This document shows positions 3,619 through 25,928 of a stretch of DNA of 64,000 bases, piece after piece. The stretch is from NCBI GenBank assembly GCA_963701855.1, contig CAVPBK010000007.1, positions 1 through 64,000 on the forward strand, in the 5' to 3' direction. Under the pieces are notes generated by a model. The model was not told the DNA's origin, made no database searches, and saw only the letters and a program-made list of their open reading frames with translations. Position 1 is the first letter of the stretch; every line of letters starts with the position of its first letter. The position numbers were made by a program, and so were the translations under genes. This DNA is from Nitrospirota bacterium. GTDB taxonomy: Bacteria; Nitrospirota; Nitrospiria; Nitrospirales; Nitrospiraceae.

Positions 3619-3800
3619 AAGCCATATCTAGATATAACCCCTATCTGTTCCCGGCGTGTTCATTCTACGGCACAATACGCCCTAAAGGGCATCACTTCAC
3701 GTGAAGAGAACCAAATGCTCAACCAGGCGCACGGCGGTTCTCTGAGCCACGTTCCTCTGTGCTGACTAGGGTTTATGTGGAAGTACTGGAAAGGCTTAGA
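3619..3800. repeat. att-like element, tRNA-Arg(TCT) family, copy 1 (diverged)
   Basis: Alignable with 7067-7290 and 17164-17386 (CGGCGTGTT..., GTACTGGAAAGGCTTAGA); ends inside the anticodon-loop core. Confidence 0.7.
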
Positions 3801-3826
3801 TAGCGTTGCTGCCTCATTGTTTCACC

Positions 3827-6346
3827 CTAGGAGGGGTATGCTGGCCGTAGTAGGAAAAGGTAGTCTGCGGCGGCTATCGTATAGGCGCCGACGGTGGTCC
3901 AGCCTTGGGTACACCTCTCCGAGGCAACCCGATCACCCACACTCCCGTCGTTGTTGAGCGCGTGAATGTGGACGTTGTTGCCGTCGCGTCCGAACCCTGA
4001 CGCCTTCAGCAGGAAGAGATACGGCGCTCCGCCAGCCGCATATGCAATGGCGGTGGTCCAGCCTTGGGTCCACTTATAGGAGGCGACGCGGGCGCCCACA
4101 CTCCCGTTGTTGTTGAGCGCGTGGATGTGGGCGTTGTTGCCGTCGCGTCCGAACCCTGACGCCTTCAGCAGGAAGAGATACGGCGCACCTCCAACCACAT
4201 AGGTAATGGCGGTGGTCCAGCCTTGGGTCCACTTATAGGAGGCGACACGGGCGCCCACACTCCCGTTGTTGTTGAGCGCATGGATGTGGGCGCTGTTGCC
4301 GTCGCTCCCGAATCCCGTCACCTTCAGCAGGAAGAGATACGGGGCACCTCCAACCACGTAGGCAATGGCGGTGGTCCAGCCTTGGGTCCACTTGTACGAG
4401 GCAACCCGTTCTCCCACGCCGCCATCACTGTTGAGCTTGTGGATGTGGACGTTGTTGCCGTCGCGGCCGACCCCCCTTGCTTTCAGCAGGAGGAGATACG
4501 GGGCACCGCCAGCCACATAGGCAATGGCCGTACTCCAGCCTTCGGTCCACTTGTATGAGGCAACCCGTTCGCCCACGTCGCCGTCACTGTTGAATTTGTG
4601 GATGCGGACATTGTTGCCGTCGTTTCCAGTGCCTATTCTTTTAAGGAGCAAGAGATAGACTTGCCCTTCGAGTGTATATGTAATGCCCGTGGTCCAACCG
4701 TTTGTCCAATGCTGTGTGTCACGACGCCGGCCGAGGGTCCCATTCGGCTGTAGAACATGAGCATGCAAGATTCCCCGAGGCAGGCTGTCCAGCGTCGCCA
4801 AGTCAGTATTGGTGAGTGTGTTGCCACCCATGTTGGCAGGGTCTCCAGTACAGGTTGTCGGGTCCGCCGAGGATTTGAAAGTGAGCGTGGGGCAGATGGT
4901 GACGTGCCCATCCACTGTGCCGTTCACCCCGAGTTTCTCGATGTGGACGTTGTTGCCGTCGCGTCCGAACCCACCCGCATTGAGCAGGAAGAGAAATGGC
5001 GCACCGCCAGCTGCATAGACAATGGCGGTGGTCCAGCCTTGAGTCCACTTGTAGGAGACGACGCGGGCGCCCACGCTCCCATTTTTGCTGAGCGCGTGGA
5101 TGTGAACGTTGTTGCCGTCTCGTCCGAACCCCGACGCCTTCAGCATGAAGAGATACGGCGCACCGCCAACCACGTAGACAACGGCAGTGGTCCAGCCTGG
5201 TGTCCACTTGTTCGAGGCAGCCCAATCGCCCACGCTCCCGTTGTTGTCGAGCGCGTGGATGTGGACGTTGTTGCCGTGGCTCCCGAACCCCGACGCTTTC
5301 AGCAGGAGGAGATACATGGCACCGCCAGCCGAGTAGGCAATGGCGGTGGTCCAGCCTTCGGTCCACTTGTATGAGGCAACCCGATCGCCAAAGTCGCCGT
5401 CACTGTTCAACTTGTGGACGTGGACGTTGTTGCCGTCGATCCCGAACCCCGACACCTTCAGCAGGAAGAGATACGGGGCACCTCCAACCACGTAGGCAAT
5501 GACGGTGGTCCAGCCTGAAGTCCACTTGTACGAGGCAACCCGATCGCCCACGCTGCCGTCGCTGTTGAGCTTGTGGATGTGGACGTTGTTGCCGTCGCTT
5601 CCGAACCCCGATGCCTTCAGCAGGAGGAGATACGGGGCATTGCCAGCCACGTAGGCAATGGCGGTGGTCCAGCCTTCGGTCCACTTGTAGGAGGCGACCC
5701 GATCGCCCACGCTGCCGTCGCTGTTGAGCTTGTGGATGTGGACGTTGTTGCCGTCGCTTCCGAACCCCGCCGCCTTCAGCAGGAAGAGATACAGGGCACC
5801 GCCAGCCACGTAGGCAATGGCGGTGGTCCAGCCTGAAGTCCAATAATAGCCCCCACGTCCGAATGCGCAGCTCCGGTAATGCATGACAGAAGAGAAGTCG
5901 TACAACCCGTGCTCGCTTCCCTCACTTGCGCTATGTTTCTCGAAGCAGTGCTGTTTTCCGTCCTCAATATTCTCCCAGTGCACGTTGACAAACCGATCGC
6001 GATCGCGCCTCGAATGCTCATGTCGCATCCCGATGGCATGCGCGATCTCATGGACCACCGCATCGGATTTATCGCAGGTGTGCTTGTTCAGCTTGACGTC
6101 TTGCCGGCCCCCTTGCCGTCCGTATGGCGAGCTGCAGGCTTCGCCATGGGCGAAGCGTATGTAGTCGCTCTGATGTGACCGTTCGACGAACCGGAGGTGA
6201 GTCTGCTCCTGGAGGATCTGGATCGCCCCAGTCGTCGCCGTGTCACCCTCGATGAATCTCCGGAGGTTCTCAACGGAACTGTCGATGACATACGGAATCG
6301 TACCCCCGAACCACCGTAGATGTTCCTCCTTCACTGTGGAGCCCAT
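3827..6346 (-). CDS. Astacin-like (M12A) zinc metallopeptidase with twelve 53-aa beta-propeller-type repeats
   Basis: HEIAHAIGMRHEHSRRDRD zinc motif, SVMHY Met-turn; repeats WTxGWTTAIAYVxGGAPYLFLLKASGFGxDGNNVHIHxLNxxGSVGxRVASYK. Confidence 0.9.
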   Translation of the reverse strand: MGSTVKEEHLRWFGGTIPYVIDSSVENLRRFIEGDTATTGAIQILQEQTHLRFVERSHQSDYIRFAHGEACSSPYGRQGGRQDVKLNKHTCDKSDAVVHEIAHAIGMRHEHSRRDRDRFVNVHWENIEDGKQHCFEKHSASEGSEHGLYDFSSVMHYRSCAFGRGGYYWTSGWTTAIAYVAGGALYLFLLKAAGFGSDGNNVHIHKLNSDGSVGDRVASYKWTEGWTTAIAYVAGNAPYLLLLKASGFGSDGNNVHIHKLNSDGSVGDRVASYKWTSGWTTVIAYVVGGAPYLFLLKVSGFGIDGNNVHVHKLNSDGDFGDRVASYKWTEGWTTAIAYSAGGAMYLLLLKASGFGSHGNNVHIHALDNNGSVGDWAASNKWTPGWTTAVVYVVGGAPYLFMLKASGFGRDGNNVHIHALSKNGSVGARVVSYKWTQGWTTAIVYAAGGAPFLFLLNAGGFGRDGNNVHIEKLGVNGTVDGHVTICPTLTFKSSADPTTCTGDPANMGGNTLTNTDLATLDSLPRGILHAHVLQPNGTLGRRRDTQHWTNGWTTGITYTLEGQVYLLLLKRIGTGNDGNNVRIHKFNSDGDVGERVASYKWTEGWSTAIAYVAGGAPYLLLLKARGVGRDGNNVHIHKLNSDGGVGERVASYKWTQGWTTAIAYVVGGAPYLFLLKVTGFGSDGNSAHIHALNNNGSVGARVASYKWTQGWTTAITYVVGGAPYLFLLKASGFGRDGNNAHIHALNNNGSVGARVASYKWTQGWTTAIAYAAGGAPYLFLLKASGFGRDGNNVHIHALNNDGSVGDRVASERCTQGWTTVGAYTIAAADYLFLLRPAYPS

Positions 6347-6808
6347 GAGGTAACTCTCTCCTCTTCACACTTCTTTGAACAGGGGCGACCTAACTCTTGT
6401 GTATACTGACCGCGTAGTGTGCACAGCCAGAATGAACACTGGCGTGTGATTCTTGCGCCTATTCAATCACCCGTCAACGCTTCCTCTAGCGTCGCGTCAG
6501 CCTGTAATTCAGATCGGCATGATTATGTTATCGCTGCATATCTGCGAAGGGTTGAAACCTCAGTCTGTACTTCGAAAAGAAGGTTTGCAGATAGACCCTT
6601 AAATATTCTTCGGAGACACTCATAAGAACTATCCCACTTCTAGTGGCCAAGGTTTTTTAGATTGGCAACCTTTACTTCTTGCAGTTTGGCATGGTCAAAA
6701 TCATTTGTTTCTGAACAGGCGGAAGGATACGCGTGTCTTCCATTAAAATCGAGGTGGTACCATGGGATTGTTTTTAGGGTTTTTGACCTCCCCTTTCTTC
6801 GGGCGTGA

Positions 6809-6981
6809 CTGTAGCTTAAATGTAGCGGAACCATCGTGCTCGATCTGGTTTGATCGGTCTTTCATCTGCCTCTGGCCTTCGTGAATGATTGAGATAGAAC
6901 CGATACGGTGAGGTCAGGCCCTATAGTCTCTGGGACATCGGTGGTTTCAAATCTCGCCCCTCCGCCTAAGAGCAGGAGCAG
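6809..6981 (+). repeat. att-like element, tRNA-Ser-like 3' end family, copy 1
   Basis: Near-identical to 15116-15288; begins with TGTAGC direct repeat (11-bp period); contains T-loop/acceptor-like TTCAAATCTCGCCCCTCCGCC. Confidence 0.7.
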
Positions 6982-7066
6982 CTTCATTACCATGGTTATC
7001 CTCCATCTCGAATTCCTGGTACATACCCTATAGCTGAATGGAAACGTATAGGTTACTACCCCCAAA

Positions 7067-7290
7067 ATCTTGCCCCCAGTCTTTCCATTGTGCATCCAAA
7101 AAGCCATTTCTAGATACAAACCCTACGTGTTCTCGGCGTGTTCCATTTACAGCAAAAAAGGCCTAACACGGCCTCACTCCACCTGAATAGAACTAAATGG
7201 CCAAATCAGCGCGAAGCCGCTATAGGATGGACCTTCAGCTCTACTGGCAAGGGTTTGCGCGGACGTACTGGAAAGGCTTAGAAGGCTGAT
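7067..7290. repeat. att-like element, tRNA-Arg(TCT) family, copy 2
   Basis: Near-identical to 17164-17386; ends GGCTTAGAAGGCTGAT (reverse complement = anticodon arm ATCAGCCTTCTAAGC). Confidence 0.85.
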
Positions 7291-7365
7291 CCGTGATCAA
7301 CGGGCGCTATATTGCGAATAGAGCCGATCGACCGCTAAACTCCCATCCAACAAAAGGAGCCGACA

Positions 7366-7926
7366 GTGATGAACGATGCAAAACGAAAAGTTGCCGATGC
7401 ACTCATGGAAGCAGCCATTGGAGATAAAGGGATACGAGCCGCATACCAGAAAGCGTTGGGATCGTTAGCCATCAATTTCTCGCTGCTGCACTTTACCCTC
7501 GAAATGTTTTCATGGGAGGTGTTTGCAGTTGACCACCAAACTGGCCAGATTCTCACCAAGGACCTCCCGACCACGAAACTCATTCAAAAGCTCCGATCGT
7601 CCTGTGGCCATAGAGCGATCAAACCTACAGAGCGCCATCAGCTTTCAGACCTCTTGAAACAGATAGAAAAGGCCGCCGAGCGTCGCAACGAACTCTTGCA
7701 TAATTTGTGGTTCATTTCCGAAGGCCAACCGGTATTTTGCTACAAGCGTGGAAGTGGTAAGGGTAAAGTTCAGCCCGCACCTACTGCTTCTGAAATCACT
7801 GAGTTCGCTCGGTCGATAGAGATCCTGATCCTCATGCTGGTTGATTTCAAAAATACGGCCTCGATCTCGATTCCCTCATTTGCTGGTGAAGGGCACCCCG
7901 AGAACCTAATTCGTCGTCAGCCATAG
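7366..7926 (+). CDS. Hypothetical protein with HEPN-like RxxxxH motif
   Basis: AAGGAG RBS; helical protein with LGSLAINFSLLHFTL and RRNELLH. Confidence 0.6.
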   Translation: MMNDAKRKVADALMEAAIGDKGIRAAYQKALGSLAINFSLLHFTLEMFSWEVFAVDHQTGQILTKDLPTTKLIQKLRSSCGHRAIKPTERHQLSDLLKQIEKAAERRNELLHNLWFISEGQPVFCYKRGSGKGKVQPAPTASEITEFARSIEILILMLVDFKNTASISIPSFAGEGHPENLIRRQP

Positions 7927-7929
7927 ACT

Positions 7930-8071
7930 TTGGTGCCAAGCTGGTGCCAAAACACCGTGACGCACCATGATCAATGATGATCTGATCCATCACGAATCTT
8001 TCCCTTTCGCTGATGATTGTTCTTGCTGAGTGTTCTGAGATAGGTCTTCGGCAGGACTCTTAATCAGCGGG
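7930..8071 (+). repeat. att-like element, tRNA-Lys(CTT) family, copy 1
   Basis: TGGTGCCAAGCTGGTGCCAA arm repeat; ends GGACTCTTAATCAGCGGG; homologous to 22881-23022 and 25800-25928. Confidence 0.85.
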
Positions 8072-8561
8072 ACCTCGTATGGTCTCAGTGATCTCGACGG
8101 CCTTGTCATCGTCACCGAGAAGTCAACGAGTGGATCACGTCCGTTGTTTCAATGAAACCTATCGAACTCGCGAACTACTACTGCCCCGAGAAGCACGCTA
8201 AGCTATGCGATCGCAGGATGCCTCTGCGTCTGGGGCTGAGCTTCGGCTCGCCCGAGGTGCGGGAGGTGATCGGGACCCGGTGGAAGAGGTGCGTTGATTC
8301 GAGTATACTCCGGCTCTCACCATTGGCGAATGCGCGAAGTTCACAGGGCGGAGGCTGGACTGGAGGCTAGGATCCTTGGTGCACCTGGTCGACCCGCAGC
8401 GGAACGACCGAGCAAGGGCTTTTGAAGTTGCTTATGGCTTTCTTGACTGTAAGAGAGGGATTTGAGACTTCCTATCCTCCCTGAATTCTGAGACGCAATT
8501 CGGGAGGATTTTATTGTATTATAATCAATGATTCAGCTTGTCCCCATCCTGCAGGATAAGC

Positions 8562-10805
8562 ATGTTCAAAAAGAATGTTCTCCGTTGGAACGTCTGGCTT
8601 CTTTTAAGTTTCGGGTTGCCCCTCAGTGTCGGAGCGGACGATACCACCCTTGACCATCCGGGATTCGCACTCAGCACCCTGGACGGGTCAGGCAACGTCG
8701 GCCAATACAGCTCAGTGACCATCGGGGCTGACGACCTCGCCCTCATCAGCTACTACGACGCCACCAACGGCGACCTCAAGGTGGCCCATTGCGCCAACGT
8801 GGCCTGCACCTCCGCCACCCTCACCACGGTGGACAGCGCAGGCGACGTCGGCCAATACAGCTCAGTGACCATCGGGACCGACGGCCTAGCCCTGATCAGC
8901 TACTACGACGCCACCAATGGCGACCTCAAGGTGGCCCATTGCGCCGACTCGGCCTGCACCTCCGCCACCCGCACCACGATGGATAGCGCAGGCAACGTCG
9001 GCCAATACAACTCAGTGACCATCGGGACTGACGGCTTAGCCCTCATCAGTTATTACGATGAGACGAACGGCGATCTCAAGATGGCCCACTGCGCCGACTT
9101 GGCCTGCACCTCCGCCACCCGCACAACCCTCACTTTTCTCCAAAGCGAGGGCAATGTCGGTCTGTTCACCTCAGTGACCATCACCGGTGGCCACGGCCTC
9201 ATCACCTACTATGACAGCACTGACCAAGTCCTCAAATTGGCCTTCTGCCCAGACTTAGCCTGCACCTCTCCCACCGTCACGAATACCCCGGACCGCACAG
9301 GCAACGTCGGCCAGTACAGCTCAGTGACCATCGGGACTGACGGCCGAGCCCTCATCAGCTACTACGACGCCACCAATGGCGACCTCAAGGTAGCCCACTG
9401 CGCCGACTCGGCCGACTCGGCCTGTCCCTCTGTGACCCGCACAACCCTCCAAACCGAGGACAATGTCGGTCAGTTCACCTCAATAACCATTGGGACCGAT
9501 GGCCTAGGCCTCATCAGCTACTACGACGCCACCAATGGCGACCTCAAGGTGGCCCATTGCGCCGACTCGGCCTGCACCTCTGCCACCCGCACAACCCTCC
9601 AAAGCGAGGACAATGTCGGTCAGTTCACCTCAGTAACCATTGGGACCGATGGCCTGGGCCTCATCACTTACTACGACGTCACCAATGGAAGCCTCAAGGT
9701 GGCGCATTGCGCCAACGTGGCCTGCACCTCTGCCATCCGCACAACCCTGGATGGAGGAGCCCATAACGTAGGCGCGCCGTCTTCGATGATCATGGGAGCC
9801 GATGGCCTGGGCCTCATCAGCTACTACGACACCACTAACGGCGACCTCAAGGTGGCGCATTGCGCCAACGTGGCCTGCACCTCTGCCACCCGCACAACCC
9901 TGGACGGAGGAGCCCATAACGTAGGCGCGCCGTCTTCGATGATCATGGGAGCCGACAGCCTGGGCCTCATCAGCTACTACGACGCCACCAACGGCGACCT
10001 CAAGGTGGCCCACTGCGCCAACGTGGCCTGCACCTCCGCCACCCTCACCACAGTGGACAGCCCAGGCAGCGTCGGCCAATACAGCTCAGTGACCATCGGC
10101 ACTGACGGCTTAGCCCTCATCAGTTATTACGATGAGACGAACGGCGATCTCAAGATGGCCCACTGCGCCAACGTGGCCTGCACCTCCGCCACCCTCGCCA
10201 CGGTGGACAGCATAGGCAGCGTCGGCCAATACAACTCAGTGACCATCGGGGCCGACGGTTTGGCACTCATCAGCTATCACGATGAGACGAGCGGCGACCT
10301 CAAGGTGGCCCACTGCGCCAACGTGGCCTGCACCTCCGCCACCCTCATCACGATGGACAGCCCAGGCACCGTCGGCCAGTACAGCTCAGTGACTATCGGG
10401 TCCGATGGTTTGGCACTCATCAGCTATTACGATAAGACGAACGGCGACCTCAAAGTGGCTCACTGCGCCAACGTGACCTGCACCTCCGCCACCCTCACCA
10501 CGGTGGACAGCATAGGCACCGTCGGTCAGTACAGCTCAGTGACCATTGGGGCCGACGGTTTGGCACTCATCAGCTATCACGATGAGACGAGCGGCGACCT
10601 CAAGGTGGCCCACTGCGCCAACGTGACCTGCATCTCCGCCACCCTCATCACGATGGACAGCCCAGGCACCGTCGGCCAGTACAGCTCAGTGACTATCGGG
10701 TCCGATGGTTTGGCACTCATCAGCTATTACGATAAGACGAACGGCGACCTCAAAGTGGCTCACTGCGCCAACCTATTCTGCGTTCCTTACCACCGCCGCC
10801 GCTGA
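8562..10805 (+). CDS. Secreted protein with 14 ~50-aa Cys-pair repeats (probable double 7-bladed beta-propeller)
   Basis: Signal peptide MFKKNVLRW...SVGA; 14x VGQYSSVTIGxDGLALISYYDxTNGDLKVAHCxxxxC. Confidence 0.85.
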   Translation: MFKKNVLRWNVWLLLSFGLPLSVGADDTTLDHPGFALSTLDGSGNVGQYSSVTIGADDLALISYYDATNGDLKVAHCANVACTSATLTTVDSAGDVGQYSSVTIGTDGLALISYYDATNGDLKVAHCADSACTSATRTTMDSAGNVGQYNSVTIGTDGLALISYYDETNGDLKMAHCADLACTSATRTTLTFLQSEGNVGLFTSVTITGGHGLITYYDSTDQVLKLAFCPDLACTSPTVTNTPDRTGNVGQYSSVTIGTDGRALISYYDATNGDLKVAHCADSADSACPSVTRTTLQTEDNVGQFTSITIGTDGLGLISYYDATNGDLKVAHCADSACTSATRTTLQSEDNVGQFTSVTIGTDGLGLITYYDVTNGSLKVAHCANVACTSAIRTTLDGGAHNVGAPSSMIMGADGLGLISYYDTTNGDLKVAHCANVACTSATRTTLDGGAHNVGAPSSMIMGADSLGLISYYDATNGDLKVAHCANVACTSATLTTVDSPGSVGQYSSVTIGTDGLALISYYDETNGDLKMAHCANVACTSATLATVDSIGSVGQYNSVTIGADGLALISYHDETSGDLKVAHCANVACTSATLITMDSPGTVGQYSSVTIGSDGLALISYYDKTNGDLKVAHCANVTCTSATLTTVDSIGTVGQYSSVTIGADGLALISYHDETSGDLKVAHCANVTCISATLITMDSPGTVGQYSSVTIGSDGLALISYYDKTNGDLKVAHCANLFCVPYHRRR

Positions 10806-10853
10806 GCAGTTGAGGATGACCGCGTCGCACGATGAAACAGGGCGTAACCAAGT

Positions 10854-10974
10854 TGTAAGCCCTCGATTAATTTAAATAAGCGAGAAACCAGACGGAAAAT
10901 CAGGGTGATAAGAAATTCCCTCTTACGGCCTCATAACCCAAAGATCGAAGGTTCAAATCCTTCCCCCGCAACCA
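10854..10974 (+). repeat. att-like element, tRNA-fMet family, copy 1 (attR-like)
   Basis: Arm homologous to 14766-14855, followed by tRNA 3' half. Confidence 0.85.
10930..10974 (+). tRNA. 3' half fragment of initiator tRNA-Met(CAT); non-functional
   Basis: CTCATAACCCAAAGATCGAAGGTTCAAATCCTTCCCCCGCAACCA; no D-arm or 5' acceptor strand upstream. Confidence 0.85.
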
Positions 10975-10982
10975 AGACTATC

Positions 10983-11013
10983 AAGGGGTTCAGCCATCCG
11001 GCCGAGCCCCCTT
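10983..11013 (+). terminator. Hairpin directly after the tRNA-fMet fragment
   Basis: AAGGGGTTCAGCC...GGCCGAGCCCCCTT imperfect stem. Confidence 0.5.
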
Positions 11014-11169
11014 CTGTTATGAAGTTCACAGGAAGTTAACGGGATGGTGGCAGGACGTGGAATAACGGGTACTCGCGGGCACAGTCAAGCGCACACTGTA
11101 CGGCGGTGAATGGCAAGAGTCATGGACGAGGTTTCATGCGATAATGTACTTCAAAGGTATCTGACTTGA

Positions 11170-12660
11170 GTGAATTGTTTAACACGAACTCTTTCTCATT
11201 GTTTTAACAAGGCGGTCACTGTGATCCGACCATTCGCCCTTCTTGCACTGATGCTCGCGATGTCGGCATGCACGCCCAACCGCATCATCTATCAGCACGC
11301 GGACCTCCTTGGCGGCCAGCATGACCTGTATGTGGTGCGGGAGGATGGGTCGAACCGGGCCGTGTTGGCGAAGAGTCCGGATGAGGAAACTGCCTGTGGC
11401 GTGACGACCGACCGCCGCATTGTCTTTACGCGTCAGACGCCCAATGGCGGCGATATTTATGTTGTGAATGAGGACGGAACGGGATTAGCCCCGGTGCGGA
11501 CCACCTCGGCTGATGAAGCCTGCTTTGGGGTCACGGGCAACAACATGGTGATTTTTGGGGTCACCGTTAGCGTAGTCAACCATGACCTCTATAGTATCTT
11601 CGTCAACGCAGCGACCACGGACACCCCTATTACACTCTCCGCGGCCCCGCGCGATGAACTCCCGATGGCGATTGGTTGGGACAATCGGATTGTGTATGCG
11701 AAACAGGATGTCGACGTGGCGATTGACGGACATCGGTACTCGTATAACAGCATCAATGATGACGGCTCGCAGTCGGCCCATGTCGCCGGCGTGTTCGAAG
11801 AGCCACGCTATGTCGCAATTAGTCCAGGGCACCGGATGATTTGGACGAGACCGGGTTCCCCGCCGAATGGCGGACTGTTTAGCACGACCACGGGACCAGC
11901 GCCGACCACTGCGGCGTTGAATACGTTTCTCCATAACCTCGGATGGATCGAAGACCGCTTCTGCGGCTTTACCCCGAATGGCCGACTCCTCCTCACGTCC
12001 CGCGGCTTTTATCCGGTCGACGGAATCCCGACAGGCTTTGCCAGCATATATGTGATGGCAGATGACGGCGGTGGCCGAGTGTTGATCAATCCAGGGCCGC
12101 GGAATTTTAATGAACTGTGCGTCGGTGCGACGGACGACTGGGTCATCGTGGCCCGCTACCCCGATACCATCGACCCCACTCGGGGAGGGCCCACGGCGCT
12201 CTGGAGTTATCCGATCAATGGCACCGGCCGTCCTGTTCGAATCGCAACTGCGCCATCCACCAATAGCTTCGCCCTCGCTTTTGAAGGGGTTGCCGTACAA
12301 GGTCGTGTGCTCTTTACGACCTACGATGCGGCTTCCCAGCAATATTCGCATTTCAGCATCAATCCGGATGGGTCAGGACTGGTCACCTTAACGGTCAGCA
12401 CCGGTGGCCCCACGGCCTTAACCCTGGGACAGGTGGTCTATTCCTTACAAGGAGGGCAGCAATATAACCTCGGAATTGTTCCCGCCGGTGGGCAGAGCGC
12501 ACTCACCAATCTCGCTGGGCAGGCGGTCGAAAATTGGACCTCCTTCGTGTATCGCACGGATTTTATGACCGGCACGGCCACACGCTGCCGCGTCTGCTGG
12601 CCCCACAGTATCGTCGATCGCGGCGGGATTCCAATCCCGAGCCCTCTGCCGCCACCCTAG
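11170..12660 (+). CDS. TolB/PD40-like beta-propeller lipoprotein (start possibly GTG 11221)
   Basis: Lipobox MSAC; repeated DLYVVREDGS / DIYVVNEDGTG / SINPDGSG motifs. Confidence 0.7.
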   Translation: MNCLTRTLSHCFNKAVTVIRPFALLALMLAMSACTPNRIIYQHADLLGGQHDLYVVREDGSNRAVLAKSPDEETACGVTTDRRIVFTRQTPNGGDIYVVNEDGTGLAPVRTTSADEACFGVTGNNMVIFGVTVSVVNHDLYSIFVNAATTDTPITLSAAPRDELPMAIGWDNRIVYAKQDVDVAIDGHRYSYNSINDDGSQSAHVAGVFEEPRYVAISPGHRMIWTRPGSPPNGGLFSTTTGPAPTTAALNTFLHNLGWIEDRFCGFTPNGRLLLTSRGFYPVDGIPTGFASIYVMADDGGGRVLINPGPRNFNELCVGATDDWVIVARYPDTIDPTRGGPTALWSYPINGTGRPVRIATAPSTNSFALAFEGVAVQGRVLFTTYDAASQQYSHFSINPDGSGLVTLTVSTGGPTALTLGQVVYSLQGGQQYNLGIVPAGGQSALTNLAGQAVENWTSFVYRTDFMTGTATRCRVCWPHSIVDRGGIPIPSPLPPP

Positions 12661-16700: not shown

Positions 16701-16829
16701 GGGACGACCTCCTTTGTTAGGTGGATAGTCGTATTAATCGAAAATCGCAATTTTCCCCAAGATTCAATCCCAGCCTGGGGCTGCCTGCTCACCTTCAAGA
16801 ACGCGCCTGGAATGTAGAAAACGCTTGGT

Positions 16830-17041: not shown

Positions 17042-17163
17042 TGTGGTGCCTCACAGCACAGCGGTTCTTGACCTTTTTTACCAGCTCTAATCTACTCCGC
17101 TTGGAGTCCAGCGCATGCTAGTGAAAACCCTAGCCATCGAGATTGGATGCGGAATTACTGCAG

Positions 17164-17660: not shown

Positions 17661-17996
17661 CACGCCCCTTTGTCGTTGCGTAACTCGGACGGTTCGACGG
17701 CAGAGGAAGGCTTGACAGAGTTCGCTACTGCCGCTCCCAGCACTTGTTGCACAGCAGGTGCTGCAGGTACCGTTGCAGTTGCGTGACCATGCGACCTGGA
17801 CCTGACGGTAGACAATATACATTGCATAATGTAATGTATGCATGACACATTCTTCGAGAGTAACCGTCTTTTTGACTGGTCTCTGGTCGCAGAGGTCAGT
17901 GGTATGGACATGCGATCAGCCGTTTGGAAATTGGTAGAACACGAAACGGTAACGGTCGGTCGTTACTTATACCATCTTTATATTTGAGGACTTATC

Positions 17997-19115
17997 ATGC
18001 GCTACAACCGTGGAAGGCGATGGGCATCTATTGTTCTTTTCATGGTTGTAGCTCCCCTGATCATGCTCCCCCCAATCGTGCTGGCAGATCTCGATGACAT
18101 TTGTCAGACATGCTACAACATGGTCAATCGGATTTTTCCTCCAGCGCCAAAGGAAGATATTGAGAAATACCGAAAGAGTTGGAATCCGTTTGCGGCCGGT
18201 CCGATGCTGAATCCAGCAATCGATATTCAGCCGCAAGGGCAGACGGTCATCCATCCCTATTTCTTCGGAACCATAGGACACCAACAGTTCGGGAATAAGT
18301 TCGGGACGAACACGTCAGACTCGCCGACGCACCTCAGTGCGAGCTTGATGCTGCTGCCGATTGAGTATGGCGTGACCGACTCGATGGAGGCTTCGGTGGC
18401 ATTCAGTTTTATCGACTGGTTTGCCACCCAGCAGAACTTCAATCCCGACAAAACCCACAATGCAAATGGACTCGGGGACACCTCGATCTTTCTCAAACAC
18501 AGACCCATTGTCCAGGATCCGGATAGTTGGCGTCCCACGGTGACCTTCTACCATAGCGTCGTCTTGCCGACCAGCCAATGGGCGGGCACCACTTCCATTC
18601 CAGGAGGATTCGCCCCCATCGGTCGACTCCCAGCCACACGATTCGGTGATCTGACCCTCACCGAGGGAATCATGATGCGCAAAAATATTCAGCCGTTTCG
18701 GTTCATGGGTGCGGTGTACTATTCCTATGCCACCCCCGGAAACACCGCAGGGATGAACAAGTACCCGAGTGATCTTATCAATTGGCGTCTGATGATGGAG
18801 CACGTCCTTGATGACTCCAAGGGGTTTGGCTATATGATCGAATTAATAGGGCTGCACGCTCTTCCCTGGCGAGCCGATGGACATGATATCAATGTGCCTG
18901 CGACCGCTCCCGCCAAGGGATTTCCTCCCAGCGGTCCCACCTTTTCAGTCATTGGGGTCCAGCCATCGATAGAGTACAAGTTTTCGAACAACATTGTGTT
19001 GGCTGGTGGTGTCCTCTTCACCCCATTTGGTCAGAACCAGCTGGATGCGATCTATCCCAACTTCACGCTCTATTATTACTGGGGTAGTAAAGACCGGCCT
19101 GTCACGATGCGATAG
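17997..19115 (+). CDS. Probable outer-membrane beta-barrel (MetA-pathway/transporter-like)
   Basis: Signal peptide; IEYGVTDSMEASV, GLGDTSIFLK, terminal amphipathic strand FTLYYYW. Confidence 0.6.
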   Translation: MRYNRGRRWASIVLFMVVAPLIMLPPIVLADLDDICQTCYNMVNRIFPPAPKEDIEKYRKSWNPFAAGPMLNPAIDIQPQGQTVIHPYFFGTIGHQQFGNKFGTNTSDSPTHLSASLMLLPIEYGVTDSMEASVAFSFIDWFATQQNFNPDKTHNANGLGDTSIFLKHRPIVQDPDSWRPTVTFYHSVVLPTSQWAGTTSIPGGFAPIGRLPATRFGDLTLTEGIMMRKNIQPFRFMGAVYYSYATPGNTAGMNKYPSDLINWRLMMEHVLDDSKGFGYMIELIGLHALPWRADGHDINVPATAPAKGFPPSGPTFSVIGVQPSIEYKFSNNIVLAGGVLFTPFGQNQLDAIYPNFTLYYYWGSKDRPVTMR

Positions 19116-19425
19116 AATAACCCACTACCTGGGAGATCCTTATGCATTGGGGGATGTCCGGTCCCGGTCCCATTCCAATAAGACCTCAAAAAACTCTACG
19201 AGGTTGTTGGTAATGACGCCCGCGTCCTCTTCTGTCAAGGACACGTCATGATAGCCCTGCCAGGCCTGGCGCGTCTGCGTGACCTACGCAGAGGAGCAGG
19301 GTTTCCGACGGTGAGGGGTCGCCATGCTAACTCCCGTCGAGATGATCTTCACGCTCGTCTGCTTGCAGAGGATCGTACGGGATCCACCGAGGGGGGCACC
19401 TCCAAAGCAATGAAAGCAATGTGCT

Positions 19426-20210
19426 AATGAAATGGACCCAGCCTTCTTCCACCCGAGTCTCACGCGAGGCACAATGGGTAGTGTTGCGCGCGCAACCCAC
19501 ACGCATCGTCAGGAAGAAAGGAGGGGCTGTTATGCGCAGTACAACCTTGGAAATTGATCTGGCGAAAAACGTGTTCCAGTAGTACGGGATGATGCTCGAG
19601 GGCACGCCGTGCTAGCCGATGCGTGAAGCGTCAGCAGGTATTGGATACGGTGGCGAACCTGCCGGCCTGTGTGATCGGGATGGAGGCATGCGGGAGTGCG
19701 CATTCATTATTGGGGTCGAGCGTTTGAACAGCTCGGGCATTGCCTCTAGTTGATGAGTCCCAGATATGTCCGGAATGATCGTCACGATGCGGAAGCAATC
19801 TGCGAAGCGGCGAGTCGGCCCACCAGGCGCTGTGTCTCGATCAAGACGGTGGAACAAGTCGATCTGCAGGCTGTGCACCGGACGCGGTCGCTCTTTGTGA
19901 AACATCGGACCGCCGTCATCAATCAGATTCGGGATTTGTTGGCCGAGTATTAGTGATTGGACAATCTCTGGAGAAGGTCCGGCCCGCCCTCGTCCGTTTT
20001 CTGGATGACGCGGCGTCGGGATTGACCACCTTTGCCCGGGAGATCTTCGCCAAGTTGTACGCGCAACTGACGGAGCTCGACGCGCATATTGAGCGGGGGA
20101 CGCACCGGATAGAGTGCTTGTTCCGGACGCATCCGGTGTGCCGGAAACTGGCCACGGTGCCGGGGAGTGGTCCGTTGAAGGCCACCGCGGTGCTGGCGAC
20201 TATCGGTGGA
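19426..20210 (+). mobile_element. IS110-family transposase pseudogene (3' truncated)
   Basis: IDLAKNVFQ*, IGMEACGSA, NDRHDAEAICEA, RTAVINQIR, LATVPGSGPLKATA across frames, with stops and frameshifts. Confidence 0.85.
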
Positions 20211-20520
20211 CCCGCTGAACCGCTTCCATGGGAAACCTCCGGCCCTCCGGGGGCTTTCCTCCCGATTGAATCAGATGAAGAAAGACAAATTGGTGCTGCG
20301 TCTTATAGCGTGTGGGCTTCTTCGCCGCTTACTCGTCGATCATTTCGGCAGCCATGCGGTAGCAGGTCTCCCTAACCTCGTGCCTTCTCAAGCGATTGTC
20401 AGCCGCAGCACACTAACAAACCGCAGGTCATCACGGTGATTGAGACTGTGCTTTGCGCAACCCGACAAGCTGAAAATATCGGCAAATCGGAGGGCAAGCA
20501 ATCTGATGACAGTGATGGGT

Positions 20521-22560
20521 CTATTGAGCCGTCAGATGGTGCGAGAAACGAACCCTGCCGCTATCATCGATGATGGTCACGTCCAGCGTAGTTCCCCGCA
20601 CAGTCACCTTGCCAAAGTTCATGAAGCCGCCTTCACTGAACAACGTGGTTGGTCTGAAGGCAGAATCTGGCAGGAGGGGCGCCATGGACGCGCCGGACAG
20701 AGGCCCACAGATGAACTCATGAAAATCGATCACCCCGTCGCCGTTCGCATCATAGGCGTTCGCTTGCACGTAATGGACGTCTCCGGCTAACCAGATGACA
20801 TTCCGAATCTTCCGTGAAAGAATCGTATCGACAATCACGCGCAATTCAGTTTGAAACCCCGTTCCGTCCGTTCCCCTCGCCCAACTGTCATTGCCCGGCA
20901 TAGCCAAGCTCCCGGCCTTCGGGGACGATAACGGCACGCTGCTCGCGATCAGCTTCCACTTCGCAGTGGAGTGGGCTAGTCCATTCAGTAACCACGCGAG
21001 TTGCGTCTGTCCCAGCATCGTCTTATTCGGCCCATCGAGATCGGCGTTGCGGCTCCGATACTGGCGAGTATCCAGGATAAAGACCTCGATATCGGTGCCA
21101 TAGCGCAGTTGCCGATACAACCGCGTTGGATCACCGGGAGGTGTGAGAATCGGCCAATACTCTAACAGCGCCTGCCGGCCTAGCGGCATCTGAGGATCAT
21201 ACGGACCAGAAAAATTGTTCCTGACATCGTGATCATCCCACGTTACCCAGATCGGAACCGACGCAAGAAACCGTTGCAGGGCTAACGATCCATGCTGGTA
21301 ACGATGCTTCGCTCGATACTGACTCAGAGTGGATGCCGTGAACTCGCTGCCCGAGGCATTGGGAGGGGATGGACACTGGTCATCGCCGTAGATGAGATCG
21401 CCCAACAGAATCGTAAAGTCCGACTTCTGAGCCCGCAATATATCGAAAATCGGATAGCCAGTCTGTTCGTCTCGACAACGATGTTGTCCCCCAAGATCGG
21501 CACTCCAGAGAAATGTGGCGGGAACAGACTCGTCCGACGAAGGTGCGGTCATGAATTCGCCTTGCATTGCTATTGTCGTGGATCCAGGCGGCTGTGCGGG
21601 CTGAATTGTGCGAACATCATAGCGGTAGCGGGTGGCTGGGATTAGACCTGTCAGTGGGACCTTCGCCGTAAAGTCCTGCTCCGTATTCGTGGAAAGCTGT
21701 TCTGTTTTCCTCAAGGATTGTTGTTGCGCCCCTCCCAGTTCAACTTGCTCCCAATTCTTGACTGTGGCAAAACGGACTTCGACCTGAGCGGGACCATCCG
21801 TCCGTAACCAGACTAAGGCAGAGTCATGGGTCACATCGCCTGTCGCAATTCCATGGGACACGGCTCCAGTCCATGAGAAAGAAGACGTCTCGAACGGATT
21901 GTCGATACAATAGGTTTGGTGTTTTAATGGGTAATATCCACCAGGCAAATTAGGGAAGTCACTGATCGCATACCGACCGGTTTCCCACATGTGCACACAT
22001 CGGGCGAGTACATAGGGAGCCAGCCTCTGGACGCCATTGATGGTGACTTTTTGGGTTCCTTTCACGAGTCCCACCAGGATGAACTTATTTCCTTGCTGGA
22101 GCCCTAGAGGATCTAGGCGTCCCTTGTACAGAAACACAAACCAGCCAGTAGATTTGGCGGTCTCCACAACCCCAGTCGCTGCTTGAGTGAGAGGCAACTC
22201 CTCGGCTGTAATTAGAGGCCCATCAGATGTCTGCTCAATGGCGATGATCCGACCGCCTGCTTGGGCAAGATGGTCTTTGAAATAGACGTCGGCCTCCGGA
22301 TTAGAGATCCCCATTTGCAGAGCAGGGTCCAGATCCTTGACCGCAGAGGGTGGGAACAATGGTTTCGCACATGACACCACAGAGAATGCAAGGAACGTCC
22401 CGCATAAGCAGATCAGCAGGTTGGCCTTCCACGCAATCTTCCCATGCGAATGACAGGGCGACACTGCATGGAGTAAGGATTTTCTGAAGGCGATAGGGGG
22501 AGGAATCATGTGTGCAGGATTCACTCTTTCTGATGAGCTCGCATCGCTGACTTCAAGCAT
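20521..22560 (-). CDS. phoD: Slp-domain / PhoD alkaline phosphatase fusion lipoprotein (true start likely downstream)
   Basis: Lipobox VVSC; Slp motifs GGRII, EELPL, CVHMW; PhoD motifs GIATGDVT, LGDLIYGD, WDDHD, LDTRQYRS, GDVH in one frame. Confidence 0.85.
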   Translation of the reverse strand: MLEVSDASSSERVNPAHMIPPPIAFRKSLLHAVSPCHSHGKIAWKANLLICLCGTFLAFSVVSCAKPLFPPSAVKDLDPALQMGISNPEADVYFKDHLAQAGGRIIAIEQTSDGPLITAEELPLTQAATGVVETAKSTGWFVFLYKGRLDPLGLQQGNKFILVGLVKGTQKVTINGVQRLAPYVLARCVHMWETGRYAISDFPNLPGGYYPLKHQTYCIDNPFETSSFSWTGAVSHGIATGDVTHDSALVWLRTDGPAQVEVRFATVKNWEQVELGGAQQQSLRKTEQLSTNTEQDFTAKVPLTGLIPATRYRYDVRTIQPAQPPGSTTIAMQGEFMTAPSSDESVPATFLWSADLGGQHRCRDEQTGYPIFDILRAQKSDFTILLGDLIYGDDQCPSPPNASGSEFTASTLSQYRAKHRYQHGSLALQRFLASVPIWVTWDDHDVRNNFSGPYDPQMPLGRQALLEYWPILTPPGDPTRLYRQLRYGTDIEVFILDTRQYRSRNADLDGPNKTMLGQTQLAWLLNGLAHSTAKWKLIASSVPLSSPKAGSLAMPGNDSWARGTDGTGFQTELRVIVDTILSRKIRNVIWLAGDVHYVQANAYDANGDGVIDFHEFICGPLSGASMAPLLPDSAFRPTTLFSEGGFMNFGKVTVRGTTLDVTIIDDSGRVRFSHHLTAQ

Positions 22561-22880
22561 TTGCGCCTCACTTGTTACTTTTAACGGGTTACTTTTTCAC
22601 CTGTGACTATCATCCCATGTAGAAGTATCGCATGATCGCCATCAAATTGAATTGCGGAGGGACATCCAATGAGGAAGCATCGCAATATGATAACACCACT
22701 AACTCATTTTTCCCTCCTCCTCTGAAGTGAAGCCCGTATCTGCTACCACACTGCGACTAGGACAGGACAAATGATCCCCGTAAGGCCCCATGTCGAGAGC
22801 ACCCTGGGTTATGGTTCCTTGTGGGGTTAGGTTGTCTGAGGTTGGGTTATCGGAAATTCGCAAACTGCAGGCCATGGCGA

Positions 22881-23052
22881 TTGGTGCCAAGCTGGTGCCA
22901 AAATACCCTGACACACCATGACCCCTCATGAGTTGTCCCATCACGGATCTTCCTCTTTTGCTGCTGATTTGTTCTGCTGAGTGTCCTGAGGTAGGGCTTG
23001 GGCGGGACTCTTAATCAGCGGGCCGTAGGTTCGACCCCTACACGGCCCACCA
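22881..23052 (+). repeat. att-like element, tRNA-Lys(CTT) family, copy 2 (attR-like)
   Basis: TGGTGCCAAGCTGGTGCCAA arm plus tRNA 3' half. Confidence 0.9.
23006..23052 (+). tRNA. 3' half fragment of tRNA-Lys(CTT); non-functional
   Basis: GACTCTTAATCAGCGGGCCGTAGGTTCGACCCCTACACGGCCCACCA; 5' anticodon stem, D-arm and acceptor 5' strand missing. Confidence 0.88.
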
Positions 23053-23774
23053 AGTTCTTCAATGTGCCGAAGAAATAGGTGGAAGTAGCAGAGTATCGGC
23101 GGTCAGGCCGCCGTCAGTGCGATTGCTTCAATTCTAAACTCTAGTGCGCGAGTTAAGGATAGTTGTATACTTCCCCCTGGCAAAGCCCAAAGGTCAGGAT
23201 GAAGCAGGGGCGTGGAACTTTCGAGAAGTTCCACGAGACATCATCATTAAGGCCAAGATCCAGGCGGCTGTTGAGAGCAAGTTTGTGAAAGCCTTGCTCA
23301 TAGATCTCGTGGAAGTGCATTGGCAGGAGTTAGAGCGGAAAGGTATCTTGCCGAAGGGCAAGTGACGGGCGCTTATTGTCTAGCAGGTTGGGGAAAAACT
23401 CGCTCGTTCATTGGGCGAAGCCCGTAAAAGCACGGTTTTCGATTGAATAAGTAATTGAATAAGTAAAATGTCTCGGCATGGGCTGTTCGCCTGTCCTAAT
23501 CGAAGTAAATGCGGTTTTCGAATAAGTTTGAGGTCATTCCAGACATCGAAGTCCACGCTTCGGAAGAGGCTAGAAAATGTTTTTTCGCAGTCTGCTGTTA
23601 GACAGGTACTTTGTGCGTCTTGCAATTCGGCAGGGGGAGGATCCCACGGTGTGGCTCATTCCGTTTCTCCATCGCCTTGCGATTGAATGCAAATCCTAGC
23701 CGCCGGGTATCTGCCAGCTTGTCTGCAGGAGCTGGAAAAGTAGGGCCTCCTGCCGAAGGGAAAGGGATAACCGC

Positions 23775-24062
23775 ATGAGCAAGATTGTCAATTATCGGGA
23801 ATACACCATCAGTTCTAACCCTTTGCAACTGTTGGGAAGAGGCGAATGGAAACCGGAAATTTTGATTTCCTCCCAGCGTGAGGGGGTCGTGACATCGGAG
23901 CCTTATGCGGATGAAACCATCTACACAACGGAAGAGGCAGCTGATAACCATGGGATCACGTTGGGCCAAGAGATTATCGACGGAAAGGTCCCGGAATTGT
24001 CGGGGAATTACGACGAGCACGAGCTTTTTAAAGCAAGCACGCCATTCACCGATCGGAAATAA
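23775..24062 (+). CDS. Small hypothetical protein
   Basis: Protein-like YREYTISSNP...TEEAADNHGITLGQEIIDG; purine-rich RBS. Confidence 0.6.
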   Translation: MSKIVNYREYTISSNPLQLLGRGEWKPEILISSQREGVVTSEPYADETIYTTEEAADNHGITLGQEIIDGKVPELSGNYDEHELFKASTPFTDRK

Positions 24063-24253
24063 TGAGAGAGACAGGCTTCAAGGGGCATCGCCTTCAATGG
24101 CGTTCCACTGTGTGTGGTAGTACCTCTCAGCCTCAATCAACATTATCGCTACTGCACTACTACCAAAACAAGTCAAACCATCCCAACCCATCAAGCTGAG
24201 TGATACGTTGAGCCGGGCGGCCACACAAATTCATTTTTAAGGAGACCTCCTAG

Positions 24254-25270
24254 ATGCCCAAGAAGCTGTCACCACCGGAAATCATGCGGAACCTCACCAT
24301 CGGATATTGGGTCGCACGACTTATTCACGTCGCCGCGACACTCAAGCTGGCCGACCTCCTGAAGAAGGGACCACGCACGGTCGAAGATTTGGCAGCAGCT
24401 ACGGGCGTTCAGCCGCACGGGCTCTACCGTATCCTCCGCGCGCTGGCGAGCGTCGGCATCTTTGCAGAGACCAAGAACCGGCGGTTCAAACTCACGCCGC
24501 TCGCCGCAACCCTTCAAACAGGCGTCCCGGCCTCCATGCACGCCTGGGCGCTGATGATAAACGACAACTGGCAATGGAATGCCTGGATGGAACTCCCCCA
24601 TGGAGTCAAGACCAGCGAGGTACCGTTCCTCAAGGCCCACGGTGTTCCGATCTTCGAATATCTTGAAAAACACTCCGAGGACCTCCAGGTCTTTGGCGAA
24701 TCGATGACCAGCCTCTCCAGGACCGAAAACCCCACAATCCCAGCCGCGTATAAATTCTCCGGAATCCGGACCCTGGTGGATGTCGGCGGTGGACATGGCA
24801 GCCTCCTGGCCACCATCCTCAAAGCGAACCCAAAGCTGAAGGGTGTGCTCTACGACCAGCACTCTGTCGTCTCCCGCGCTGAGAAGGACCAGTACGTGAC
24901 TGCGAAAGGCATCAAGGAACGCTGCAGGCTCGAATCCGGGAACTTCTTCGAGGCCGTGCCAACAGGCGGCGATGCCTACATCATGAAATATATCCTCCAC
25001 GATTGGAACGATGAAGAGTGCGTGAAAATTCTTGCGAACTGCCGCGCCGCCATGAATGAGAAGGGGAAGGTTCTCATCGTCGACAACGTTATCGATTCCG
25101 GCAACGACCCAAGCTGGGGCAAACTCCTCGACATTCAAATGCTCATCATCGGAGGACGCGAGCGCACGAAGAAGGAGTTCGCTTCGATGTTCGCAGAGGC
25201 CGGCTTGAAGCTGACCCGAGTGGTGCCGACCAAGGGTCCTCTCAGCATTGTCGAAGGAGTTCGAGCATGA
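24254..25270 (+). CDS. SAM-dependent O-methyltransferase (family 2, with dimerisation domain)
   Basis: LVDVGGGHG, GNFF, YIMKYILHDWND, GGRERT; AAGGAG RBS. Confidence 0.93.
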   Translation: MPKKLSPPEIMRNLTIGYWVARLIHVAATLKLADLLKKGPRTVEDLAAATGVQPHGLYRILRALASVGIFAETKNRRFKLTPLAATLQTGVPASMHAWALMINDNWQWNAWMELPHGVKTSEVPFLKAHGVPIFEYLEKHSEDLQVFGESMTSLSRTENPTIPAAYKFSGIRTLVDVGGGHGSLLATILKANPKLKGVLYDQHSVVSRAEKDQYVTAKGIKERCRLESGNFFEAVPTGGDAYIMKYILHDWNDEECVKILANCRAAMNEKGKVLIVDNVIDSGNDPSWGKLLDIQMLIIGGRERTKKEFASMFAEAGLKLTRVVPTKGPLSIVEGVRA

Positions 25271-25799
25271 CGGTCTGGACTAGGAAGGCGGCGGAGTGGA
25301 ACTCTCGTTGCTTCGATGCGAAGCGTGGTCGCGGGGGCTCTCAATCGTCGTCGGTGGTTTATGTCGTGTCTTGTCCAGCAACCGCGTGTTTCGGTCTCCT
25401 GCATGAATGACTGAGGCACGAGGGGCCGGCGAACGGTCGTCGGTAGCCAGTGTGCGAGGAGCGTCCTGCTGTCTAACAAGCACTTCTAGCCAACGAGCGC
25501 GGCGTATAGAATTCGCGGGCCGCTGCGATGCCACGTTCCAATCCAAACGAAGACCACCCCATGGTACTGTTCTAAATTTTGGCTAAAGATCTGCACTACG
25601 GATCAAGTTCTACAGAATCAATAGAATGCATGGAATCATCTCAAGCCCTTGTTCGCTGAGAAAAAACAGGGAAACTGCTACCGCCACACAAATATTTTAT
25701 TTCGCCAAACACAACATGCTCATGATCCCAATGGCCATTGCCCGAAAGAAGAAGTATGGTGGCAAGAAAGATCGGACTCTCAGGAAGCCAAAACTAATC

Positions 25800-25928
25800 C
25801 TGGTGCCAAAACACCCTGACACAGGATGATTCATGTTGATATGCGAAATCACAAATTCTCCTCCTTTGCTGCTGATTCGTTCTGCTGAGTGTTCTGAGGT
25901 AGCTCTTCGACGGGACTCTTAATCAGCG
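25800..25928 (+). repeat. att-like element, tRNA-Lys(CTT) family, copy 3 (core only)
   Basis: CTGGTGCCAAAACACCCTGACAC...TGCTGAGTGTTCTGAG...GGACTCTTAATCAGCG. Confidence 0.85.

Follow-up and report, generated by a model that had tools for sequence, protein, structure and literature searches.

A co-oriented array of tRNA-derived repeats, probably attachment-site junctions of integrase-less elements, in the accessory DNA of a soil Nitrospira

Cis-mobilizable elements (CIMEs) were reportedly defined for elements of the ICESt1/ICESt3 type, by Pavlovic in 2004 and Bellanger in 2011. A row of repeats that recalls such elements was studied here in a soil Nitrospira genome, within bases 1-64000 of the 71,959-bp contig C7. 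This stretch of 64,000 bases is called the window below, and the repeats, each ending in a piece of a tRNA gene, are spread over 22.3 kb of it. In the parts that deal with CIMEs, the account of ICESt1/ICESt3-type elements describes them as having lost their integration and transfer genes and kept their attachment (att) sites (PMC5704250). According to the same parts, accretion takes place when an incoming element enters an att site belonging to one already in residence, which leaves direct repeats of the site between the blocks (PMC5704250). In Dehalococcoides, the islands at ssrA stand in rows, each bounded by a repeat of the 3′ end of the target with conserved adjoining sequence, and fifteen islands without an integration module were proposed to be CIMEs, as the relevant sections of that study put it (PMC3146451). 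The Islander survey recognizes the ends of an island by a regenerated tRNA gene and a displaced fragment. In the figures drawn from that survey, the attP is centred on the anticodon in 2083 islands and lies in the T-stem region in 1836, 5′ fragments occur in 159 of 3919 islands (4%), and there are only 4 arrays of three or more members (PMC4383910). Finally, in the tripartite integrative and conjugative elements (ICEs) of Mesorhizobium, att sites of three recombinases are interleaved in one genome; as outlined in that account, all three integrases occur there and work one after another, joining three separate regions into one conjugative element (PMC5882170).

As far as these accounts go, the kind of structure is already known: integrative elements that decay to CIMEs and accrete at att sites. 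Particular to the present locus is that at least six specificities are combined in one co-oriented array without an anchor, and that its sites are spread through a genus of nitrifiers. Like the CIME arrays described, the locus contains integrase-less blocks between direct att repeats, a likeness seen at the level of sequence. Unlike them, in that those arrays use one site type at their own target gene, it mixes at least six types, has no target tRNA on the contig and holds many blocks of only one to three genes. The Dehalococcoides rows, in the sections cited, depend on a serine recombinase, have the tmRNA gene as their single target and retain their anchor, whereas the sites studied here are of the tyrosine-integrase type, mixed and anchor-less. 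In contrast to the tripartite ICEs as outlined above, the array carries neither integrases nor conjugation genes, and all its sites point the same way. By the rules given for it, Islander requires an integrase and a fragment for each member of an array and would reject this region. More generally, such regions are missed by island finders for which every island must have its own tRNA, fragment and integrase. Among the titles listed on Nitrospira, genomic islands, integrases and tRNAs, none concerns an array of this sort.

In what follows, contigs of this genome (G000; 15 contigs, 4.30 Mb, 55% G+C) carry C-numbers, other genomes G-numbers, loci fetched from these L-numbers, and metagenome runs the labels X1-X5. 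Site families are labelled A (Arg-TCT), S (Ser-TGA), K (Lys-CTT), M (fMet), T (Thr-CGT) and L (Lys-TTT/Arg-CCT). A repeat search of the window combined with BLAST of the whole genome recovered ten repeats in four families, at the coordinates that an earlier note on this DNA, hereafter the original prediction, had given (Table 1). Each of the ten consists of a conserved arm of 75-210 nt that terminates in a piece of tRNA, the core. By genome BLAST, A2 and A3 are 96.4% identical over 224 nt (E 9e-102), and A1 and A2 72.5% identical over 182 nt (E 4e-23). The corresponding values are 94.8% over 174 nt for S1/S2 (E 5e-72), 83.9% over 143 nt for K1/K2 (E 3e-36), 80% over 130 nt for K1/K3 (E 2e-25) and 88.9% over 90 nt for M1/M2 (E 1e-27). 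As predicted, the arm lies on the left and the core on the right at all ten sites; the two-sided probability of such a single orientation is about 0.002.

Table 1. Sites, remnants and cargo in the window, with related islands of the same genome (positions refer to the window unless a contig is named)
Feature	Position	Strand	Description
Tyrosine integrase C-terminal fragment	1-204	-	PF00589, 57.7 bits; cut by contig start and IS3 copy
IS3-family insertion sequence	263-1515	-	orfA 1155-1472, orfB 295-1158; Pfam HTH_Tnp_1 and rve
A1	3585-3808 (repeat 3585/3673-3808)	+	diverged Arg-type arm, decayed core (tRNA sense: minus strand)
Astacin-family metalloprotease	3827-6346	-	PF01400, E 1.3e-36; 159-nt tandem repeats
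S1	6809-6981	+	Ser-type arm, tRNA-Ser-TGA core from T-loop to 3′ end; putative attP-like internal junction
A2	7067-7290	+	Arg-type arm, truncated core; within left end of Ser-type element
186-aa ORF	7366-7926	+	no family match; fills slot between A2 core and K1 arm
K1	7920-8071	+	Lys-type arm, anticodon stem-loop core; without tRNA remainder
755-aa protein	8538-10805	+	150-nt tandem repeats
M1	10854-10974 (repeat 10854-10943)	+	fMet-type arm, tRNA-fMet positions 33-77 including CCA
M1-M2 cargo	11170-14659	+	496-aa ORF; phosphoesterase (phospholipase-C family) 13052-14659, PF04185, E 3.9e-70
M2	14766-14855	+	fMet-type arm; core cut directly past anticodon loop
S2	15116-15288	+	Ser-type arm, core; putative right end of 8.3-kb S1-S2 element
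153-aa ORF, Slp-like lipoprotein (16131-16700), 114-aa ORF	15387-17041	-	ORF list, Pfam
A3	17164-17412 (repeat 17164-17386)	+	Arg-type arm, near-complete tRNA-Arg-TCT 5′ half (minus-strand sense)
5.3-kb cargo slot	17413-22737		0.8-kb multi-copy segment 19420-20213; PhoD phosphatase gene 20521-22560 (minus)
T arm remnant, Thr-CGT-type	22738-22874	+	decayed truncated core; abuts K2
K2	22871-23052 (repeat 22871-23022)	+	Lys-type arm, tRNA-Lys-CTT positions 30-76 including CCA
O-methyltransferase	24254-25270	+	PF00891, E 5.8e-48
L arm remnant	25555-25675	+	core gone; family elsewhere joined to tRNA-Lys-TTT or tRNA-Arg-CCT cores
K3	25779-25930	+	Lys-type arm, anticodon stem-loop core; without tRNA remainder
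5′-fragment islands	C9:482153-489970; C3:155770-164134; C11:258524-273153; C14:109746-110396 with C10:10229-10267		

The cores were compared with the 45 tRNA genes of the same genome. M1 corresponds to positions 33-77 of tRNA-fMet (97.8% identity), K2 to positions 30-76 of tRNA-Lys-CTT (100%) and S2 to positions 68-89 of tRNA-Ser-TGA (100%). A3 corresponds, on the minus strand, to positions 8-41 of tRNA-Arg-TCT (100%), showing that the Arg family carries the 5′ half of its tRNA and not the 3′ half. The remaining six cores are shorter or decayed in the alignments, and A1, A2, K1, K3 and M2 retain just the surroundings of the anticodon stem-loop. Genome-wide, 49 tRNA fragments were counted outside tRNA genes at E 0.01 or better, a few of the shortest of which are possibly due to chance, and 4 of them fall within these 22.3 kb (Poisson P ~1.5e-4, computed with 50 fragments). 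In agreement with the original prediction, ARAGORN finds no tRNA gene in the window. The accompanying statement that the window is also free of integrases holds for bases 205-64000, where neither the PF00589 profile nor tblastn with 19 integrase frames from this genome detected a remnant, and fails for bases 1-204, which encode the end of a tyrosine integrase. Two further claims had to be corrected. Ten elements are not the full list, two more arm remnants (T and L, Table 1) being present, and the limit of about three genes between sites is exceeded from A3 to K2, where six ORFs of at least 88 aa are found in the ORF list.

We read these repeats as junctions left at the attachment sites of tyrosine-integrase elements, and the array as a tandem and nested accretion of integrase-less, CIME-like elements. 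This interpretation is probable in our view, with some room for doubt. For all four families, the identity of the sites and their link to an intact tRNA gene are established by copies elsewhere: each family has a properly oriented copy that marks the distal limit of an island, the intact cognate tRNA marking its near limit. For the S family, tRNA-Ser-TGA (C9:489931-490020) is followed 23.7 kb downstream by an S site (513574-513734). For the M family, an M site (7198-7295) is found 5.4 kb downstream of a tRNA-fMet gene (1769-1845) in G013:C216, and for the K family two complete K sites lie downstream of the tRNA-Lys gene of G023:C21. For the A family, a 5′ fragment (C3:155770-155852) is located 8.2 kb upstream of tRNA-Arg-TCT (164058), which adjoins an integrase pseudogene (163523-163941).

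The Arg type is tied to an integrase as well. In G075:C56, G093:C2 and G011:C34, a homologue of the C3 integrase is found on the core side of A sites, at a distance of 100-300 nt; with C3 itself, this makes four genomes in which an Arg-type integrase is adjacent to an A site. An intact integrase of the A type is represented, for example, by a 406-aa frame at G016:C148. An integrase beside the A core is the layout expected for an internal junction of tandem elements that carry the tRNA 5′ half. Arms were thus found beside integrases and intact tRNAs, and the part of the original prediction that saw att-type junctions of several tRNA-specific integrase families, with separately acquired blocks and same-family direct pairs bounding integrase-less modules, is borne out. 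In the genome as a whole there are 24 matches to PF00589, several of them broken. At four tRNA genes (Ser-TGA, Arg-TCT, Thr-TGT and Arg-ACG), an integrase that runs in the same direction lies on the 5′ side. For every one of them a displaced 5′ fragment (positions 1 to 39-41) was found, three at 7.8-14.5 kb upstream on the same contig and that of Arg-ACG on another contig (Table 1). Set against the Islander count of 5′ fragments quoted above, four such tRNA genes are many for one genome.

The real tRNA-Lys-CTT gene of this genome is followed by a tandem array of its own (C6:1490129-1524011). In that array, 3′ fragments of 46-47 nt lie at 1507962 and 1517867, fragments of lesser length lie at 1491404 and 1523994, and the arms are unrelated to those of the K family in the window.

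At the start of the arms stand two phased direct repeats, with a spacing of about 11 nt. The pair is exact in 21 of 28 K copies (heptamer TGGTGCC), in 14 of 24 A copies (GTGTTC) and in 6 of 10 S copies (TGTAGC); in the M family a suggestive pair is visible by eye only. Two S copies that have diverged show the same alteration, to TGTGGC, in either repeat, a joint change that fits two putative binding sites of a single protein.

The way in which the array is built was examined by comparison with other copies of the same modules. Window positions 6946-7288 are colinear (78%) with C9:489998-490343, just downstream of the real tRNA-Ser-TGA gene. The order S core, about 100 nt, A module recurs in G088 (93% over 482 nt) and in G011; the right flank of S1 is common to these two copies and, in part, to the flank of the real tRNA-Ser gene on C9. 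On C9 and in G018 the K module comes directly after the A module and is followed by a conserved module of about 170 nt. This colinearity at C9 and in relatives shows that A and K modules are passengers in the left end of the Ser-type element family. The original prediction had attributed the interleaving of families to several integrases; the composite of S core, A and K is instead inherited, as seen on C9 and in G088, G011 and G018. With respect to this composite, S1 looks like an attP-like internal junction between two tandem Ser-type elements. The 170-nt module (C9:490494-490666, L023:6494-6666) follows the K core on C9 and an M core in G013. Many genomes of the genus contain it at 79-89% identity, and it may be a common left-end arm of these elements. 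The alternative that tRNA-Ser-TGA is natively flanked by the A module throughout the genus was considered and rejected, the match in most genomes ending at the tRNA or about 50 nt beyond it.

Several blocks of the array are bounded by direct repeats and contain no integrase, namely S1/S2 (8.3 kb), M1/M2 (3.9 kb), K2/K3 (2.7 kb) and A2/A3. Comparable stacks occur elsewhere. Pairs of K sites 0.5-1.5 kb apart are found in G056, G082, G063, G018 and G044; K is followed by M in G013; A, K and K lie within 1.1 kb in G056; and, of the 28 K copies that were aligned, roughly one in three is preceded by T.

From these comparisons a history may be proposed. Each junction would consist of a P-type arm and a core produced by recombination inside a tRNA gene. 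The crossover would lie in the anticodon loop for Lys-CTT, fMet and Thr-CGT elements and in the T-loop for Ser-TGA elements; Arg-TCT elements would also cross over in the anticodon loop and would carry the 5′ half. Small elements devoid of integrase would then have accreted in tandem and in nested fashion, as CIMEs do. S1-S2 would represent one complete 8.3-kb integrase-less element of the Ser type, whose left end would be the usual composite of a short spacer, an Arg-type module and a Lys-type module, and in which a 3.9-kb fMet-type element bounded by M1 and M2 would be nested. After S2, a second copy of the skeleton (A3, T with K2, K3) would follow, its slots filled with different cargo. That the families interleave would mostly reflect copied composite ends, followed by gain and loss of cargo between modules, and four integrases each acting on this very spot form no part of the proposed history. 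We infer this order of events, and also that the sites are now mostly relics, movable only if an integrase acts in trans.

The sites are widely distributed in the genus. The S, A and K site families were found in 16 of the 24 genomes sampled within the genus and in none of the 16 examined from three sister families. Among the matches listed, with three candidates scored per genome, M arms occur in about 20 further genomes at identities of 83-94%. Most copies sit among ordinary accessory genes, remote from integrases. In G088:C24, for instance, five A-type sites are found within 14.5 kb, and none of the 23 ORFs scanned there matches PF00589. Across 14 other genomes the modules are 80-95% conserved per column, also where the tRNA remainder is absent; in the 28 K copies this remainder is complete in 10, partial in 6 and missing in 12, K1 and K3 among them. 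One arm family may also be joined to two different cores. A arms occur with 5′ halves of Arg-TCT or Thr-TGT (L048, L049; G088:C24, C5), and L arms with 3′ parts of Lys-TTT or Arg-CCT (the L remnant of the window set beside C5:91370-91580 and C6:1557816-1562150). Such pairings suggest that targets were switched inside one integrase family.

Several observations weigh against accretion of CIME-like elements as the full explanation. Only the A family is tied to a cognate integrase, no neighbouring integrase having been found for the S and M families in the loci fetched. For the K family, the sole linked candidate is one xis-int pair of G056, at 1.4 kb from a K site; homologues of its integrase, 81% identical, occur in G005 and G045. 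The anchor tRNA of the array, if there is one, lies off the contig. Furthermore, a sharp stop past the anticodon stem is seen in 12 of the 28 K copies and in several copies of A and T, together with arms that are 80-95% conserved, a combination that passive decay of displaced tRNA halves does not predict. Finally, the gap from an A core to the next K or T arm varies from 0 kb (C9, G018) to 0.63 kb (A2-K1), 1.9 kb (G088) and 5.3 kb (A3-T), with no duplicated site in any of these slots. Site-specific insertion at A or K is therefore insufficient alone to fill them. The sharp-ended sites and the dual cores fit modular and perhaps still functional sites better than plain decay.

Two ideas would give the sites such a working role. 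The original prediction proposed an integron-like platform. Integrons, too, are rows of small gene blocks with recombination sites between them, and separately acquired modules between att sites are indeed present in the window, so that this part of the proposal stands. The remainder is not supported: three features of integrons are missing. Neither an integron integrase nor a primary site was found at the end of the array, the sole PF00589 match on the contig being the fragment at 1-204. Hairpin-forming cassette sites were not seen either, the fold z-scores of six module strands ranging from -1.78 to +0.70. In addition, and differently from integrons, the cores are tRNA-derived and the genes lie in mixed orientation, with seven plus-strand and about ten minus-strand genes among the main ORFs between 2.7 and 25.3 kb. 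We consider it unlikely that the locus is an active exchange platform of this kind, on which integrases encoded elsewhere in the genome or brought by incoming elements would swap cassettes of one to three genes between selected docking modules. The sharp boundaries of the modules on both sides and their conservation without the tRNA remainder speak for such a platform, as do the recurrence of integrase-less arrays (the A sites of G088:C24, the K-K pairs of five genomes) and the five plus-strand ORFs that terminate 0 to about 290 nt upstream of a module. The astacin gene, moreover, lies between differing site types in two genomes: its block (3801-6396) begins right where A1 ends and is 92% identical to one in G095:C27 that is flanked by two tRNA-Thr-CGT fragments. 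On the other hand, no integrase adjoins the array, the A-to-K slots lack duplicated sites, and inherited composites account for the heterologous order of the families.

Evidence of present activity was sought in the integrases and in metagenomes. The Arg-type integrase of this genome is a pseudogene split over two frames, and the K-linked integrase of G056 has no close homologue here (best 29-31% identity, none at E 1e-40), both of which also count against an active platform. Parts of the stretch are contained in 20 of the 24 metagenome runs listed, from 14 studies, with 54-82% of the sampled words present in X1-X5, and the contigs of four runs (X1-X4) were aligned to 6500-26200. No clean excision or circle joints were found in these four runs, whose contigs are short, break at tRNA-identical cores and have no bearing on activity either way, rare excision being undetectable in them. 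Five joints are listed, each on one contig of one run and with 20-34 nt on its shorter side; the two that link sites of the same family are 67 and 127 nt out of register. There is thus no evidence that the array is currently active. The synteny of an S copy on C4 with G015 was also considered as a sign of function and set aside, the two genomes being too close to be informative.

The other idea is broader and, in our judgement, similarly improbable. It supposes a modular docking system of the whole genus, in which arm and anticodon-stem-loop modules of several specificities are selected and recombinase-less cassettes are moved between them. If this were true, any integrase present would shift cassettes of one to three genes from one genome or site type to another. 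The system would then be a tRNA-derived counterpart of integron cassette exchange, and the core-only sites and dual-core arms would be working parts and not debris.

Cassettes may alternatively have been swapped by homologous recombination, the modules serving as portable homology and a double crossover replacing the content between them with no need of an integrase; as a general explanation this is, to our mind, quite unlikely. Content that varies from 0 to 5.3 kb between the same A core and K arm, with no site duplication, is what such swapping would leave, the modules are 72-96% identical across copies and genomes, and the same cargo gene may have differing flanking site types. Stretches of about 150 nt at 70-85% identity, however, are a poor substrate for homologous recombination, and swapping explains neither the origin of the sites nor the direct pairs S1/S2 and M1/M2. 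Alongside accretion, homologous recombination between modules may have filled the slots.

That the modules are genes for tRNA-like or tRNA-mimicking non-coding RNAs, and not recombination sites, is very improbable. Such genes would be in keeping with the high conservation of the whole module and with an upstream complementary heptamer that can lengthen the anticodon stem of K (fold z = -1.78). Nevertheless, a search of positions 1-30000 against Rfam at E up to 5 gave four weak unrelated matches, none of them on a site, and the z-scores of the six module strands, given above, do not go beyond -1.78. In seven K copies an A-to-C change beside the anticodon is accompanied by an unchanged heptamer in six and an altered one in one, and the sites stand at the ends of islands, next to tRNAs and integrases. 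That the repeats arose by misassembly is hardly credible: although the contig begins in an IS copy and short metagenome contigs break at tRNA-identical cores, independent contigs from other runs bridge M2, S2, A3 and K1 (X2 spans 12643-16131, with M2 and S2, and 16103-17918, with A3; X3 spans 7261-8233, with K1; X1 spans 12554-15145, with M2), the copies differ by 4-28%, and the same families occur in 16 of the 24 sampled genomes of the genus.

The stretch as a whole is strain-specific accessory DNA. Over a 16-kb core region around the tuf-region tRNAs, G015 shares 94-97.5% identity with this genome, and no colinear counterpart for any part of the 72-kb contig was found in it, which places the entire 72 kb in the flexible genome. 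Gene order is not identical in relatives, in line with the original prediction. A relative so close in its core thereby lacks at least 72 kb of accessory DNA that is structured by leftover att sites. The gain of accessory genes in such Nitrospira genomes is poorly described so far. The recurring site families offer concrete markers for mapping gene flow in these nitrifiers, and arm-plus-core sites together with candidate integrases are potential recombination tools.

The cargo between the sites is a mosaic: the astacin block has its nearest copy in G095, and other blocks have theirs in other genomes or are without copies. The genes at 15387-17041 have their nearest copies at two separate spots of G015:C25 (81-86%). 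The cargo between M1 and M2 has no match at E 1e-20 in the five relatives searched. Homologues of the 755-aa protein (79-85%) were found in six fetched loci, of which five are siteless (L028-L032) and the sixth, L033, contains a K site at a distance of about 4 kb. Both this protein and that encoded at 3827-6346 consist largely of head-to-tail repeats, of 50 aa and 53 aa respectively, with ten or eleven units each; the astacin protease domain forms the N-terminus of the latter. The segment at 19420-20213 contains three small minus-strand ORFs (92, 97 and 88 aa) with no Pfam match, and its copies are found on C12 (two), C6 and C9 and in G094 (four).

At the left end of the contig, the integrase fragment (1-204) is 81% identical, by tblastn, to an integrase fragment that adjoins tRNA-Thr-CGT on C6. 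The IS3 element next to it has a 99% identical copy at C5:8806-10057 and about ten more copies at 79-88%. Its insertion inside the integrase fragment probably caused the contig break. The contig ends in this IS copy, 3.3 kb left of A1, and no sign of a functional element is seen next to the array.

Three BON-domain paralogues (27901-28772, 36433-37354 and 44678-45527), which share 68-79% identity, lie in the right half of the window together with further stress-type genes (CsbD, ferritin-like, hemerythrin and M48 peptidase). A 505-nt repeat is present at 37650-38146 and 43261-43762 (83% identical). Partial copies of it occur on seven other contigs, several of them near att sites or integrases, as at C9:488282-488440, just upstream of the tRNA-Ser-linked integrase.

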